From: a virus
Lineage: Duplodnaviria; Heunggongvirae; Uroviricota; Caudoviricetes
IMG/VR virus record: IMGVR_UViG_2737471848_000001
Coordinates: 1 to 7,109 of that record
Length of the DNA: 7,109 bases
Direction: 5' to 3' (one strand)
This document shows positions 1 through 7,109 of this stretch, piece by piece (position 1 is the stretch's first letter; the number at the start of each line of letters is the position of its first letter). The position numbers and the translations under genes are program-made. The notes below the pieces were generated by a model. That model ran no database searches. It was given only the letters and a program-made list of their open reading frames with translations, and was not told the DNA's origin.

Positions 1-82
1 AGTCATATTCGCCCTGACTTTCCAGAACCATACGAACTGCCCGTTGACGGACCTCGGGGGAAAAACGTGTATTTTTAGTCAT
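1..82 (-). CDS. IS3-family transposase OrfA, N-terminal 27 codons only (3' end off-window)
   Basis: ATG at 82..80 with AAGAGG 9 nt upstream; translation MTKNTRFSPEVRQRAVRMVLESQGEYD matches the N-terminus of IS629/IS1203-group OrfA as I recall it. Open to the window edge. Confidence 0.75.
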   Translation of the reverse strand, partial: MTKNTRFSPEVRQRAVRMVLESQGEYD

Positions 83-136
83 CCTGTTTACCTCTTTCTC
101 AGGGAGTTTAGTCTCCAGGATTCCCGGGGCGGTTCA
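1..136 (-). mobile_element. IS3-family insertion sequence, IS629/IS1203-like, left end only (terminal inverted repeat plus start of orfA); element continues beyond window start
   Basis: Minus strand from 136 downward reads TGAACCGCCCCGGGAATCCTGGAGACTAAACTCCCTGAGAAAGAGGTAAACAGG-ATG, a TG-initiated terminal inverted repeat followed by a Shine-Dalgarno (AAGAGG) and an ORF. I recognise this as the IS629-type left end from memory, unverified. Confidence 0.8.
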
Positions 137-640
137 GCTCATGTTGTTGGCGTATGTCTGCCCGGCGTTTGCCTGACCTTGCAGCGCACCAAGCCCAACG
201 TTTGCCAGATTGTTGTAATTGCTCATCTGATTTGATAACCAAGACTGACCGAGTGTCGGCGCGATCGTAGCCAGTTGATTGCTTGTGGCTGTCGAACCAA
301 GTCCACCCGTCGCCTCCGCAGCAGCAAGACTCTGGTAACGCGCCTGCCCTGCAAGGTCTTTATACTGCTGAGAGTTGTAATACTGATTAAGTGCCTGCCC
401 CTGACCTTCTAAACTGGAAAGGTTCTGAAGCTGGTTAACATACTGCTCCGCAAGAGGCGTGAACGGAGCAAGGTTTTTCATGATCGTCTGCCACTGCTGA
501 TTTTGCAGGTCTGCGGCATACTTCTGAGCTTCTGCTGCATATTTTGCGCTTTTATCAGAGTTGCCACCTTTCCCGCCTTTTTCAGGGCAATAAGGTTCCT
601 CACCGCGCAGTTTTCTGCCCAGTTTAAATGCATATAACAT
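134..640 (-). CDS. Ejection (E) protein, P22 gp7-position homolog, apparently C-terminally truncated by the IS insertion (168 codons vs about 229 expected)
   Basis: ATG at 640..638 preceded by GGGAGA; sits where gene 7 lies in P22 order (after gene 14). The stop TGA (136..134) is the first three bases of the IS inverted repeat, so the reading frame runs straight into the IS terminus. Confidence 0.7.
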   Translation of the reverse strand: MLYAFKLGRKLRGEEPYCPEKGGKGGNSDKSAKYAAEAQKYAADLQNQQWQTIMKNLAPFTPLAEQYVNQLQNLSSLEGQGQALNQYYNSQQYKDLAGQARYQSLAAAEATGGLGSTATSNQLATIAPTLGQSWLSNQMSNYNNLANVGLGALQGQANAGQTYANNMS

Positions 641-642
641 GG

Positions 643-1098
643 CTATCTCCCGTGATTCAGGAAGTCGATTAGTTCTTCGCGTGTGGCGCTGTAAAACGTC
701 ACGTCATCCACGCCTTTGAAGTATTTCTTGATGGTTCCTACACGCTTAAGGCCAATCATTGCGCAGTACATCTGACCGTGGCGGAATTTGCGTGCAGCGA
801 ACGATGTGACGCACTGAACGGTGGTGTTAGTCAGAATGTATTTCCAGAACTCCAGCCCGATTTCCTTGCTGAATCCACGAACCTCTGGCAGGTACATGGC
901 GTGGCAATCGAATGTAAGCGGCTGAATCTCCTGATAGTAAACAATGCCGCCAAACTGACCGTGCACGTTAACCTCAAAGTAACGGCATTCAGGCTTGTAA
1001 TCGTATCCATCACCGTTGTTGCTCCCGGCAATAATGTCAGGGTGATTTCCTACTGCTTCTATCAGGTCGATGTTTCGCGTTGGTTTGAACTGAATCAT
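643..1098 (-). CDS. P22 gp14-position protein (head/tail assembly-associated), 151 aa
   Basis: ATG at 1098..1096 overlaps the upstream stop (TAATG); GGAG 7 nt upstream; TAG stop at 645..643. Assigned by gene order between tail needle and gp7 and by size, not by direct sequence recognition. Confidence 0.75.
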   Translation of the reverse strand: MIQFKPTRNIDLIEAVGNHPDIIAGSNNGDGYDYKPECRYFEVNVHGQFGGIVYYQEIQPLTFDCHAMYLPEVRGFSKEIGLEFWKYILTNTTVQCVTSFAARKFRHGQMYCAMIGLKRVGTIKKYFKGVDDVTFYSATREELIDFLNHGR

Positions 1099-1946
1099 TA
1101 CTGCTCCGCGATTATCTTGATGGTTGTGGCAGTAAACGCCGCACCATTTGACTGGATGGTTAACGTACTGCCATTTGTGGCAAGAAATCCGTCTTTATCC
1201 ACGCTGAAGAACGTAGCTAACAGGATGTTGTCGGTTGTTGTCGCCGCATTACGACTGCTAACCAGTGTGTCAGGAACAGAGCCGGAAAAGGTTAGCTGCA
1301 TTGACCTGTTGGCGGTTCCGCTGGGCCACGTCCCGACGATCGACAGCTTGAAGAACAAGGTTTTGTTCTCGTTGAACACAACCATCTTGTTGTTAACGGT
1401 ATCGAAGAATGGCGCTAATGTTCCTGATGACGGCGTGAGCGTTTTCAGCAGACTGACAAGGTTGGTCGGCGCTGTCGGGATGGTTACAGATACGCCAGAG
1501 TAAACAACCTCTGACTTCTTGCGAGTAGTGGCATACTCCAGAGCATCGATGCGAGTTTCATGGTCTGAAAGCGTGTTTTGAATGGCGACAACTTCATCCG
1601 TCAGGTAATCAATATCGTTTTCTGCTGTCGTTAATCGTGAGTCAAGGCTGACTATCGCCGCTTCTGCGTTAGTGATCCTTGTTTCGTGGTCCTGTATCTT
1701 CGCTTCAGCTGATGCCAGTCGAATTTCGTGATCAACCAGAATCACATCCTGCTCATCGTTCCTGACTTGTGCGTCATAAGCGCCCTGTCCGGCCTCGTTG
1801 GCCTTGTTAGCCACGTTACCAACATCAGTGCCCTGTGCGATAACGTAAAGCAGATACGACTGCGAGAAGATATTGCGTGGAAGAACTGATGTATCGAGCC
1901 GCGTAGCTTGGATGATTACCGGCACATTGAGATTCGAATCCGCCAT
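1098..1946 (-). CDS. 26: Tail needle / cell-envelope-penetrating plug protein (P22 gp26 family), 282 aa, with Sf6-like C-terminal knob-type domain
   Basis: N-terminus [43 protein letters not shown] resembles the gp26 N-terminal domain that docks onto gp10; central heptad-like repeats (DHEIRL..DHETRI..DHETRI); C-terminal about 140 aa Ser/Thr-rich beta-type region unlike P22 gp26. ATG overlaps gp10 stop (TAATG), AAGGA SD. Confidence 0.88.
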
Positions 1947-3364
1947 TACTCAATCCTTATCTGGCAGCCAGACAGAGTGACTGGTGACTTCGTGATAACG
2001 CGCAATTTGAAGCCGACATTTTTCCTGATGCGCCCTACTCGTTTCCACAAAACGCGTTTGTCGTAAACGAACGGTTCATTCTGCTCAATCATCTGCTCAC
2101 GTCCGTAATTGATGCCGTCAGTGGTTGCAGAGAGGAACAGTCGGTCGGCGTACTGCGCAACGCCAGTTGACGATTCAACCTCAAGGTCGAAAACTCTGGC
2201 GTTATCTGCTTTGAAGAGTGGAGTAAACAGCAGGTGTTCCTGCTGCTTGTCGTACTGGCTGCTGATATCGAACTGCAATTTCCCGGTCACGGACTCCAGC
2301 TTATCGCCGCACGTTATCTGATTGCCTTCGTAAATGAAGTCGATAGCGCGGTACACATCGTCATACAGGCCTGTTTTCAGCACACACCATTGCGGACCAT
2401 TGGCGCTTGAAGATGCGTCGTAAACAAGAACATGGCGCGGAAGGTGGATAATCAGCAGCTCATGCGCATCAAATCGCAGAGACTCCATCACGCCATCAGC
2501 CAGTTCATCAGCAGTGTAGGAGCGTAGTATTTTCTCAATGCTCGCGCTGGCGATTGGTGATACCTGACCGGAGCCGATGATATACACAGACGGCGCACCT
2601 GTTGCCGGATTGCTGATGAACGCATAAGAATCAGCGAATGGCGTTTTGCAGTAAGTCCCGGCAATACCTTTCTGCACCATCAGCGATGGTTGTGCAACAT
2701 ACAAAGCGGCACCAACGGTGGTTGCACCAGTCAGGGAGAAATATTCAATCGTCGATGAACCAAAGCAGACGATGAAATCTCGCCATGTGCCGATACCGAT
2801 TATTCCGTCAGGCTGTGATTCTGCCCGATATTGTGCGCTGTAGCGGTCAGGATGCGATTCGTCTTCAAGGTCAGTGATAAACCATGAATCGGTGCCGTCT
2901 TTTGACCACGCATAACGCCCACGTAATCGCGTAATGTCGCGGACTGAGCCTAACTCATACTGCGTGAATCCGCTGTCTGCAGGCCAGTTTGAGACGGTTT
3001 TAACCGTGCCATCATAGCGATACTCGACCAGTTGACCATTAACGCCTACAGCCTGAGATGTCCGACCATGAGCCATTGATACGCGACCACTTCCGGAAAC
3101 ATCACCGACTTCGCTTTCGCCCTTATACAGCTTGCCACCACACACGCGATAAACAGCATTCTGCGCCATGTTGTACTCGACGCCTCGTGATACACCGTTC
3201 ACATCAGAACGTTTGGCAATGCCCGGGAATGAGCGAAGATATCCGCTGCTGTTCAGGATTTCTTTGGGTGTAGCCAACATATTCACTGGCAGATAGTCGA
3301 TATAGTCGGCGTTTCGAAAGTCTTTGCCGACACCTTTCATAAGCGGAAGTTGCTGAATCGGCAT
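1946..3364 (-). CDS. 10: Tail accessory factor / tail hub protein (P22 gp10 family), 472 aa
   Basis: 472-aa ORF, same length as P22 gp10 and strongly similar as I recall it (MPIQQLP...); located between gp4 and gp26 homologs; GGGAG SD; stop-start junction TAAATG with gp4. Confidence 0.92.
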
Positions 3365-3865
3365 TTATTCGCTCCCGTTATCGCAAGGTTCCTTCCGGTG
3401 GAAGTAATTCCAACCGTTCCACTTCGCCAACTGATTACCGCTACCAACAGGCATACGGTTTGGATAACCGGACTTACATTTTGCGGCTTTTGCTCTGTCC
3501 ATTGCAGACAGTTTGACGAGTCGCTCTTTCCCGTATCTGGCAGTGGTTATAAGTTTTGCAGACGCTTCCAGCGCATAATCCGGAGCAATGCGGCAGGCAA
3601 GGTTGAAAATGACGGCATTGATAGCGTTATTTGATAAACCGTGTTTATCGCCAGGATCTGGAGCGACATCTGCATCAGCGAAAATGTAGCCAACGTTGAT
3701 ACCTGGTGACGCATCACCGCCAAGCCATTCAGCCATCATCATTTCAAGGTCGTTAACGCCGTCTTCCATAGACTGCGGTTCGACATCGGTTAACGTGGCA
3801 TTTGATGCCACACCGAGCTTACGTAATGCCGCAAGAACTAAATCACCCTTCGTTGTCAGGTTCAT
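3365..3865 (-). CDS. 4: Head completion / tail accessory factor (P22 gp4 family), 166 aa
   Basis: Preferred start ATG 3865..3863 (AAGG upstream) gives 166 aa beginning [33 protein letters not shown], matching the gp4 N-terminus and length. An in-frame upstream ATG at 3928 would give 187 aa. Confidence 0.85.
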
Positions 3866-4067
3866 CTGCTGCCGCCTTAGGTTTTCGACCAGGCTTTTTA
3901 CGCTGTTTTTCTTCTGGCTCTGCAACATCCTTCAAAAGGTCATCAGGATGTGAAAACCAGCCAGCATCCAGATATTCCTGAAGCTCTTCGGCTTTCACGA
4001 TTTCAAAGTCGTATCCAACGCCTTTCCATTTCTTCATGTCTCCATGACGAAAGATCATGTGTGTCAT
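3843..4067 (-). CDS. Small hypothetical protein (74 aa) between coat and gp4; same position as the extra small gene of Sf6-type late operons; function unknown
   Basis: ATG at 4067..4065 with GGAGA 5 nt upstream; acidic body and Lys/Arg/Pro-rich C-terminus ([23 protein letters not shown]); 3' end overlaps the gp4 start by 23 nt. The ORF-track version starts at a GTG at 4115, which I reject. Confidence 0.55.
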
Positions 4068-4079
4068 GCTTGTCTCCAG

Positions 4080-4106
4080 ATAAAAAAGGGAGCCGAAGCT
4101 CCCTCT
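4080..4106 (-). terminator. Rho-independent terminator-like hairpin immediately downstream of the coat gene
   Basis: Minus strand: AGAGGGAGC-TTCG-GCTCCCTTTTTTAT, a GC-rich 6-9 bp stem with a UUCG tetraloop followed by a 6-T run; begins 5 nt after the coat stop codon. Confidence 0.6.
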
Positions 4107-4111
4107 GGTTA

Positions 4112-5407
4112 TCACGCGGTCTGGTTAGGCAGACCAACACCAATTGCCTCTGGTCGTACAGCACATGCTGAATACCACACAGCAATACGGCACTTACCAG
4201 ACAGAGTGTTGATATCACCCTGCGTTGCGAAGATGCCGTTAACACCAATACCAGGAATGCTGAAGGAAGACGTTTTCATGCCAGCAAACAGTTCATGGGT
4301 TACCGGGATCGGCTGAGACAGAAGGCGGATTGAGTCATCAGCCCAGAACACGTTAGCGGTGGTTGTTGCCACGTTCAGAACGTTTACCGGAGTGGTATCA
4401 GCAAGAGAGGTGTTTACGTTAGCGTAAGCCTTCTCTTCTTTTGTCAGTGACGCGTCATCCAGTGCAATCGGTTTCGGCGTGATTTCGATGTGAGTACCAT
4501 CGATCACACGGGTGATTGAGAAAGTAGCATCATCAGTCAGCACGTTCTTCGCCATCTGAGACAGGAATTTCACACCAGTGAAACTGATTTTGTCGCCGCG
4601 CTTAAATCCGGTGGTGGAGGATACGGTCACCGTTGCAACACGGTTGTCGACGTTCTCTTTGTTACCATCGGTATCAAGGGTGTATGCCTGCGGCTTAAAC
4701 TTCTGCGCACCAGAAACAGTTACACCAGTAGCGGTTGACTTGGTAACTGCCGGAAGTTTCGGTGAGCGAAGAATTTCATCAAAGCCAGCAATCTGACGCT
4801 GAATAGTACCGTTGCGATACGCTTCTTCAGGAACGCGCCCGAAGATGTCACCATCTACCAGGTTGCGGCCTGCTTTACGGTAATCGTCAGGGTTCAGGAA
4901 GTAACTGATGCCCATATCGCGGTTTAGCTCACGGGAGAACATCAGGCGCTCTGCATCAGACACAAAATCCCAGCCAGACAGGCCAGTAGATGGACCAATT
5001 GCGCGGGTATCGTGAACAACAAGCGAGCCCATTTCAGTTGCCTGTTTGGCAATCGCTGACTCAATGTTATTCGCCAGTTTTTTGGCGGATGCTTGGATGC
5101 GGCGACGGTAAGAACGCTCATCACGCAGGTCATCTGCACGAAGCTCGAAGAAATCGTTATCCGGATCGCCCATGTTGCATTTCACGGAGAGTTCCAGAAT
5201 CCCGGTTGCGTTGCCAGTTAAATCCCAGCCAGTCTGGGTTGGCGCTTCCTGCTCAACAGGCATCCACACGGTGTTGCTTGAACGCTGCATGGATTCTGCC
5301 GGAGGGGTGTATTTTGTCACTTTTGACGCCATTGGCGTCAGGTTCTGGACGGTTTCGATGATTTCATCCAGAGCATACGTGACCAGTTGACCTTCATTTA
5401 ATGCCAT
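4112..5407 (-). CDS. 5: Major capsid (coat) protein, P22 gp5 type, 431 aa
   Basis: Full-length similarity to P22 coat protein as I recall it (MALNEGQ..., ...[10 protein letters not shown]..., ...[12 protein letters not shown]); AAGGAA SD; start overlaps scaffold stop (TAATG); TGA stop at 4114..4112. Confidence 0.95.
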
Positions 5408-6318
5408 TATCGAATTCCTTTATTCAGTTGCGCCTTGAGCTTGCGGTATGTCTCTACATCCCCTTTGTTTGCTGCCGCTTCCATCTGCCTTTCAATCGCA
5501 GAGATATTTGCAGCAACAGCGTGTCCATGAATGGGTTCATCAGGTAACGGGGCTTCTGAAACAGGCTTGGCTCGAGGCTTGAGAGTTAAACGTTCTGACA
5601 GTCGAGTGAGTTCAATCAGCGCGGATTGCCCGTTCATCGCCAGCAACTGGCGTGTTTTCTCAGGATTAGCACCAAGGTGATACATGAGAGCGGCGGATTT
5701 CTCCGGGAAGAGGCGCATGATGTCGGCACCGACTGCTGGCGGCACCAGTTGCATGAATGCATCCTCTTTCTCCTGATAGTCAGGGATATTGAGCTTTTCC
5801 GCTGCGTCGTAGTGCTTACGGGCTGCCTCGACGTATTGCGCTGATTGCTGGGTGAACTCCTGAGTTTTGCGACCCTGCTCGGCGACAGCCTGGCTTCGTG
5901 CGTCCATAGCCTTGATCTGCCATTCACTGTTTGCCTGCTGGAAGGCGGCCAGTGCGCGGCTCTGGTCATAGTCGTACTTAGCCAGTGCATCTTCGGAAAG
6001 ATAATCGTTAGGGTCTGGTTGTTTTGGTAACTCAGGGTTCACCCGCAGGTGCTCCGGCAATTCTCCACGCTTAACCGCTTCCATCTGCTGCTCAAGCTCA
6101 CGCTGGCGTTTGCGTTCGATGCGGCGACGGGCAAATTCAGCATTAGTTGCCGGGTCTTGTTTTGGTTTCTCATCGTCTTTCAGGACAATCTCGAAGCCTT
6201 CTTCCTGACCTGCGCTGTCGTTGGCATTATCGACAACTAAGCCATCAGCAGATGCCGCTGCATGATTGCCGGGCAGGGTTAATTCTTCAGAAGCCTGAAT
6301 GTCGGTGGTTTGGTCCAT
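5407..6318 (-). CDS. 8: Scaffolding protein, P22 gp8 type, 303 aa
   Basis: 303 aa, same length as P22 gp8, with highly similar sequence by recall (e.g. [25 protein letters not shown]-terminal [19 protein letters not shown] coat-binding helix-turn-helix region); immediately upstream of coat. Confidence 0.93.
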
Positions 6319-6331
6319 GATTAACTCTCTC

Positions 6332-7072
6332 TTATTGAGGTGTCTCGGCTACTCCGCCGGAGGGGATTTGAACTTGACGCATAAGATTCGCGAAATCCAT
6401 GCGTTGTGAATGAGTCTGGTCTGCATCTTTAAGAAGCAGCTCAGCGTTAGCACGAGCATCTTTGCTGCGCTGTTGCTGGAATTGACCTACGAGCTTGAGG
6501 TACTCACGCAGTTCTGCCTGCTTGTCGAGGTCCATATTGTTGAAGATTTCCGCAATCTTCGCGGCGTTGAGTTGGTTTTGGGCTTCAACCTTGGCGGCTT
6601 CAACCTGAATCTGCGCCTGTTGGTTCTCTGCCTTGAGCAATTCAGCCTGACCTTGCAGAAGGATACCCTGCGCCTGAATTTGCTCTGCTGATGGCTGCTG
6701 CGGCTGCTGTTGAGCCTGCTGTACCATCTCCATCTCTTCAGGTGTTTCTGGTTTCTTCAGCCCCATCATCACCAGTTGCTTGTTCGCGTACTCTCGCATC
6801 ATCTCGACGCCTTTACCATCAAGCAGCGTGAAGTATTGCAGCATCAGCATCTGGAACTCTGGAGTACCTTGTGGAACCTTGGTGAGTAACTCCTGAATCT
6901 CTGCGCGGTTCTGTTCCTTCATACTCTGGAAGGATGGTCCAACGTCCGTATAGCACTCATAGCGACCGCGAATGTCGTTGAGTGTGACCACATTGCCGGA
7001 CTGGTAATCGACAACTTGCGCATAGAGTTGAACGTCTTTCTCGCTTCCATCTTCAAGTGTCAGCGTTACATG
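6332..7072 (-). CDS. 1: Portal protein (P22 gp1 type), C-terminal portion only; 5' end not present in window
   Basis: Frame open from 7072 to stop TAA at 6334..6332; Gln/Ala/Glu-rich C-terminal region ending ...SGGVAETPQ, consistent with the long C-terminal helical barrel of the P22 portal; directly upstream of scaffold. The ORF-track start at 6991 is an internal GTG, not the real start. Confidence 0.85.
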
Positions 7073-7090
7073 TCACGAACGGTGCAATAG

Positions 7091-7109
7091 CTGTCTCTTA
7101 TACACATCT
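7091..7109. other. Tn5/Nextera mosaic-end adapter sequence (CTGTCTCTTATACACATCT), library artefact at contig end
   Basis: Exact 19-nt match to the reverse complement of the Tn5 mosaic end AGATGTGTATAAGAGACAG at the very end of the window. Confidence 0.9.

Follow-up and report, generated by a model that had tools for sequence, protein, structure and literature searches.

An IS629 end at a probable deletion or rearrangement breakpoint in a decaying P22-like prophage of Escherichia coli

What brought the tip of an insertion sequence into the late operon of a P22-like virus, at the very edge of a 7,109-nt stretch of DNA (the window)? The implicit model of a preliminary description of this DNA was that IS629 had recently and simply inserted in gene 7, with the late operon otherwise complete. 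The explanation that we consider very probable is that an IS629 end marks the place where a decaying P22-like prophage at argW was broken by deletion or rearrangement, and that the contig ends at a multi-copy IS. The left end of IS629 abuts codon 168 of gene 7 of a P22-like prophage located at argW in E. coli, and the boundary 137|136 would represent the breakpoint of an IS629-associated deletion or rearrangement in a defective prophage, rather than a demonstrable simple insertion.

The minus strand from position 136 reads TGAACCGCCCCGGGAATCCTGGAGACTAAACTCCCTGAGAAAGAGGTAAACAGGATGACT..., and from 136 down to the start of orfA it consists of TGAACCGCCCCGGGAATCCTGGAGACTAAACTCCCTGAGAAAGAGGTAAACAGG followed by ATG. 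Positions 1..136 (minus strand) are the left (IRL/orfA) end of IS629, i.e. the first 136 of 1,310 bp, the rest being cut off by the contig end. This segment comprises the 25-bp left terminal inverted repeat TGAACCGCCCCGGGAATCCTGGAGA, which starts with TG (112..136, minus strand; delimited by comparison of IRL and IRR in a full copy in the related assembly L006), a Shine-Dalgarno-like AAGAGG (91..96, minus strand) 8 nt 5′ of the orfA ATG, and the first 27 codons of orfA, MTKNTRFSPEVRQRAVRMVLESQGEYD (2..82, minus strand). The ATG lies at 82, and base 1 of the window is the first base of codon 28. Window positions 136..1 match IS copies in phage records at 136/136 bases (E = 3e-65), among them that of JQ347801 (phage JLK-2012, from O55:H7 DEC5E), in which the depositors labelled the matching gene ‘IS629 putative transposase OrfA’. 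When a 140-base query was run against 5,426 complete E. coli genomes, 3,582 of them gave matches, at 23,577 places in total, every one of which bears the annotation IS3 family transposase. The match of window 1-136 to IS629 is thus far beyond chance. Two earlier proposals, of an IS3-family element of the IS629 group at the window edge and of an orfA located just inside the left repeat after a Shine-Dalgarno sequence, are both borne out, the latter with the very translation originally written down. The orfA gene is co-directional with the late genes, so read-through from the late operon would be expected to enter the IS; a scan of window 1-700 for sigma-70 promoters and terminators found none.

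The complete element can be studied in near-identical relatives. Full copies in assemblies L005 and L006 measure 1,310 bp and agree with the window at every one of the 136 nt that they share with it. The IRL and IRR of the L006 copy differ at only 3 of their 25 positions (22 match), none of these among the first 13, and the tips are of the TG...CA type, the IRL in the window starting with TGAACCGCCCCGG at 136 and full copies ending in ...CCGGGGCGGTTCA. The full element is 99.5% identical to the annotated IS629 of JLK-2012 (JQ347801), and 94-95% identical to copies annotated ‘insertion sequence:IS629’ in the O157 Sakai-type phages VT1-Sakai, CP-1639 and Stx2_499 (95.3-95.4% for AP000400 and AJ304858). 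The two open reading frames of L006, orfA (10559-10885) and orfB (10885-11772), overlap, with orfB in the -1 frame; an ALIL frameshift pseudoknot is recognised at the overlap (Rfam, 120.9 bits), and RefSeq annotates a joined CDS with ‘programmed frameshift’ for the IS. OrfB from the relatives' full copies matches the IS3 family transposase profile NF033516 (NCBIfam; 312 bits, cut-off 160) as well as PF00665 rve (90 bits) and PF13276 HTH_21 (Pfam), and full-length OrfA in L006 matches PF01527 HTH_Tnp_1 (Pfam) and NF033516. To judge from sequence, the element has the defining traits of the IS3 family and of IS629, its completeness being known from near-identical relatives and 136 of its bases lying in the window. 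Its name and sub-type follow the annotations of depositors, and the sub-type is best regarded as a probable assignment.

Because this anatomy is that of the IS3 family, a mechanism of transposition may be proposed from what is known of the family. OrfA and a transframe OrfAB DDE transposase would be made via -1 programmed frameshifting, with the ALIL pseudoknot stimulating it; OrfAB would bind the TG...CA inverted-repeat tips, and the element would be copied into a circular form that is then pasted into a new target, as a rule with a duplication of 3-4 bp. Multiple copies of IS629 may then serve as substrates for recombination and adjacent deletions. For IS629, a target-site duplication of 3-4 bp is reported (PMC3271280). 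Other copies of the same IS in related sequences are flanked by 3-bp duplications (AGC/AGC in L002, TAC/TAC in L003 and ATG/ATG in L010), and one IS629 copy has a 4-bp duplication, ACCC.

The boundary between phage and IS can be placed to the base. Alignments with E. coli prophages and with two P22-like phages, Dewey and IME10, run up to window 137 and no further, and because all of them stop there the boundary is set at 137|136, as the preliminary description had placed it; its proposal that the IS interrupts a P22-like late operon also holds, the interrupted gene being gene 7. Aligned with Dewey, the intact gene reads ...AACAACATGAGC followed by AGCATTGCACAG, and the window ...AACAACATGAGC followed by TGAACCGCC. 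The truncated gene, for a P22 gp7-type DNA ejection protein (134..640, minus strand; assigned by PF25688 P22_gp7 and by alignment with gene 7 of Dewey), retains 168 of its 230 codons, and the first three bases of the IS supply its stop codon (TGA, 136..134). Since both IS629 tips start with TGAACCGCCCCGG, either orientation of the IS gives the same truncated gp7. The truncated product covers only profile positions 1-168 of 230 of PF25688 (Pfam, 342 bits), and the intact gp7 homologue in L011, the argW prophage of E. coli JNE132847, spans positions 1-230. The truncated protein is by sequence a member of the P22 gp7 family that falls short of full length; an NCBIfam profile search assigned it no family, whereas Pfam did.

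Could the junction be an artefact, with an IS end misjoined to phage DNA during assembly, or a contaminant comparable to the adapter found at the opposite contig end? That untrimmed adapter does indicate that read trimming was imperfect. The 168-aa truncated protein, on the other hand, was retrieved by exact look-up from 49 collection blocks, for which 24 carrying contigs were read, and its cluster record lists it on 40 contigs, all labelled ‘[Escherichia coli]’. Four of the contigs with the exact protein exceed 1 Mb and come from independent projects. An identical junction and product in so many independent assemblies leave a chimera with practically no credibility, and this explanation is rejected.

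The state of the DNA on the far side of the IS bears directly on the model of a simple insertion. The last phage bases before the IS are AGC (137..139, minus strand; flank comparison), which a simple insertion would have duplicated, so that the sequence would read ...ATGAGC-IS629-AGCAGCATTGCACAG..., with the AGC duplication followed by the remainder of gene 7 and then by genes 20 and 16. Both the duplication and the far side were read in near-identical relatives, the window itself stopping inside the IS. Neither a 3-4 bp duplication nor any remainder of gene 7 beyond the IS was found in the three long assemblies that carry the exact junction (L004, L005 and L006; 0/3 for each). The left flank is always AGC, and the right flanks are CCTTCG in L006, CGGCGT in L005 and AAAGACCTTCG in L004, in which the IS is inverted; the duplication predicted around 137-140 is therefore not borne out (left AGC; right CCT, CGG or AAA). 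Further, a 700-base junction-spanning query found the 137|136 junction in 0/5,426 complete RefSeq E. coli genomes, the best matches being to the phage part only, and the window is 99.99% identical to L005 (1 base differs in 7,090), whose far side belongs to another prophage. A simple insertion is compatible with the window alone, it may well have been the ancestral state, and the copies with 3-bp duplications mentioned above are of just this simple type. As an account of the present junction it nevertheless appears improbable.

The absence of a duplication is no argument against membership of the IS3 family, and is attributed here to secondary rearrangement. It is an ordinary condition for IS629, because only 21 of 47 IS629 sites in O157 have a duplication and 26 of 47 are without (PMC3271280).

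The preferred reading, a deletion or rearrangement breakpoint, draws on what the relatives contain past the IS. The right flanks of L004 and L006 correspond to the 3′ part (last third) of gene 16, encoding a DNA transfer protein, with 80.6% identity to the injection protein of Salmonella phage Emek and 99-100% identity to gene 16 of the intact argW prophage of E. coli JNE132847. The gene 16 remnant gave no match in a blastn search of the right flank against phage Dewey, because the allele is mosaic. Relative to the intact prophage, the breakpoints lie at nt 504 of gene 7 and at nt 1153 (L004) or 1158 (L006) of gene 16, so that 2,756 bp (L004) or 2,761 bp (L006) are missing. Gene 20 is gone entirely, together with the end of gene 7 and some 384 codons from the start of gene 16. 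The far side of L005 is different, and consists of the nin/Q region of a lambdoid prophage, which implies either that IS629 mediated a rearrangement of the chromosome or that the assembly was joined at the repeat. The L005 sequence past IS629 (11815-20507) is a nin/Q/nanS-like region. The relatives thus differ past the IS, with gene 16 in L006 and L004 and another prophage in L005, and errors of long-read assembly at repeats are possible. We infer both the deletion route and the resemblance of the window's genome to L005 or L006 past the contig edge; a right flank CCTTCGTAACGC past the IS would correspond to the L006-type 2.76-kb deletion and CGGCGTATTGCT to the L005-type rearrangement.

A further allele is provided by the complete genome of OkiPb01684 (NZ_AP042519.1, L010), in which the same argW prophage has the IS between a truncated coat gene (at the equivalent of window 4807) and nt 1221 of gene 16. 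Erosion has gone further in this prophage, which extends over 700-14120 of L010 and carries three IS629-type copies, IS100 and IS1. Through deletions, a replication gene now adjoins a fragment of a lysis gene, and the coat gene adjoins gene 16.

Two routes to the breakpoint are possible, namely recombination of one IS629 copy with another and a transposase- or IEE-type adjacent deletion, and the data fit both. One version of the latter holds that IS629 inserted in gene 16 and that a transposase/IEE-dependent adjacent deletion then reached gene 7, which would make 137|136 a deletion endpoint and not a target site. The arrangement in OkiPb01684, with a left flank at the coat gene and a right flank 63-68 bp deeper in gene 16, resembles repeated nibbling of this kind, and the low proportion of O157 sites with a duplication (21/47; PMC3271280) accords with it. 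IS629-adjacent deletions linked to IEE are reported, from a few nt to >40 kb, in PMC9943667, which cites Kusumoto et al. 2011. Against this stands the comparison of L004 and L006 (10505-11814 in each), in which IS629 occupies the same gene-7 breakpoint in opposite orientations, with the gene-16 side 5 bp apart (AAAGA), a pattern poorly explained by a single one-sided deletion. The data equally allow recombination between two copies, and the role of IEE here is putative. An initial insertion in gene 16 is accordingly possible, and on balance doubtful.

No single simple history explains both the orientation and the 5-bp difference between L004 and L006. Three models fit the two-orientation pattern, none of them decisively: a two-copy inverted ancestor resolved differently in each lineage; local inverted re-insertion followed by deletion between the 13-bp identical tips; or IEE-type joining. 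The alleles at the locus are direct IS joined to gene 16 nt 1158 (L006), inverted IS joined to nt 1153 (L004), inverted IS with a left flank in the coat gene and nt 1221 on the right (L010), and direct IS joined to another prophage (L005). It is tempting to speculate that they form a natural time series, in which one IS629 copy flipped in place and eroded the prophage from its tips. Local re-insertion in inverted orientation and subsequent deletion between the 13-bp identical tips, or IEE- or microhomology-mediated joining, would be a possible route. We regard such a series as rather unlikely; if true, it would be a record, from wild E. coli, of an IS inverting in situ and of adjacent deletions that proceed step by step.

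The remaining P22-like late operon (643..6318, minus strand; from the list of open reading frames and Pfam searches of identical genes in L004-L008) contains, all on the minus strand, the genes for scaffold (6318..5407), coat (5407..4112), gp4 (3865..3365), gp10 (3364..1946), tail needle (1946..1098) and gp14/DUF2824 (1098..643). Its nucleotide identity is 95-96% to Dewey, APC_JM3.2 and IME10, and about 79% to P22. The prophage adjoins tRNA-Arg/yfdC/mlaA, i.e. argW. It is defective, with a truncated gene 7 and a portal gene that IS100 has split. All three ejection proteins are lost, since gp7 is truncated and gp20 and most of gp16 are absent in L004 and L006, and the portal is not intact. The prophage would thus be unable to make infectious particles.

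The portal gene lies at the opposite edge of the window. Its 3′ fragment (6332..7070, minus strand) starts at the IS100 insertion site, at which a 5-bp duplication, TGTAA, is found (7070..7066); the portal gene of L006 is uninterrupted. The adjoining 20 bases (7071..7090, minus strand) are the right tip of a 1,954-bp IS21-family element of the IS100 type, and are identical to L005 3551-3570 and to L010, in which istA/istB of this element are annotated as IS100. The full IS100-type element occupies 1617-3570 of L005, and L006 and L007 are without the portal insertion. The last 19 bases of the window (7091..7109, minus strand) are AGATGTGTATAAGAGACAG, which we take to be the Nextera/Tn5 mosaic-end adapter. 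This exact 19-mer, for which 0 matches are expected by chance, is a non-genomic library artefact; L005 continues as IS100 sequence at this place. Because of the IS tips at both edges and the adapter, the contig is considered to run from IS to IS and to derive from a Nextera short-read library.

This also bears on the suggestion, made in the preliminary description, that the window stops where it does because a multi-copy IS collapsed in a short-read assembly. Support is indirect and comes from the IS100 tip and adapter, from the independent short-read contigs L007 and L008, which also stop inside an IS629 copy, and from a related complete genome with 23 places matching IS629. Repeat collapse as the cause of the contig end is well supported, short of proof for this sample.

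The same IS629 end had been read as a hint of a Shigella or pathogenic E. coli host. The second part stands to some extent: the carriers of the junction are labelled E. coli, and include a bovine/beef EPEC/ETEC hybrid lineage. JARWBV, which carries the 168-aa protein, is strain MFDS1017696, an O49:H10 ST785 EPEC/ETEC hybrid from beef in Korea according to a literature search, and OkiPb01684 was obtained from bovine faeces in Japan. The IS itself is a weak marker, two thirds of complete E. coli genomes matching it. A Shigella host is unsupported, the labels on the exact 168-aa protein all being E. coli.

A known element with known behaviour is thus encountered here, since there is already ample documentation both of deletions linked to IS629 and of its presence in the prophages of pathogenic and bovine E. 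coli. The element has the tips, orfA/orfB arrangement, pseudoknot and, at other sites, 3-bp duplications of IS629 (IS3 family, IS51 group; isoforms IS1203 and IS3411; Shigella sonnei and E. coli), from which it does not differ; only the context of the gene-7 copy, without duplication and at a deletion or rearrangement junction, is distinct. The gene-7 copy shares the preference of IS629 for prophages, in which 62% of O157 copies are found (PMC3271280). The variable deletions from an IS629 tip seen in several lineages (L004, L006 and L010) resemble those ascribed to IS629 and IEE in EHEC (Kusumoto et al. 2011, cited by PMC9943667), from which the present case differs in that the role of IEE is putative, and in that part of the pattern is equally well accounted for if IS copies recombined by homology.

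Phage Sf6 with its IS911 is an example of an IS-interrupted P22-like phage. As in Sf6, an IS3-family element is found in a P22-like genome that integrates at argW, beside a tailspike-acyltransferase-integrase module. Unlike in Sf6, the IS is another one and lies elsewhere, and essential genes (7, 20, 16 and portal) are destroyed, giving a dead prophage as opposed to a viable phage with a passenger IS.

The biological importance of the locus is small, and its value lies in annotation. What is filed as a 7.1-kb ‘phage’ contig is a piece of a dead prophage with an IS element at either end, database entries for a ‘DNA transfer protein’ of 168 aa represent gp7 cut short by an IS, and the 19 bases of Nextera adapter should be trimmed off the contig. 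Tools that assess prophage completeness would overrate the region.

Several other features of the prophage and its relatives were noted. Region 13466-17714 of L004 encodes a tailspike, an Acyl_transf_3 acyltransferase (363 aa) and IntS beside argW; a search of the phage collection gave nothing close to the acyltransferase or to the body of the tailspike (35% coverage). A second IS629-like copy in L004 (401-1708), 93.6% identical and with a broken orfB, is nested in IS100 and flanked by the ACCC duplication. The HNH endonuclease gene located between scaffold and coat in Dewey (L001 5058-5579) is absent from the window (at 5407), and the tail-needle gene of the window (1098-1946) has 282 codons, with knob domain PF16532, versus 233 codons in Dewey. 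The gene 16 remnant of L006 is itself occupied, 84 bp past IS629, by an IS66-family element (11899-14300; tips starting with GTAAGCG; TnpB_IS66 and DDE_Tnp_IS66 genes).
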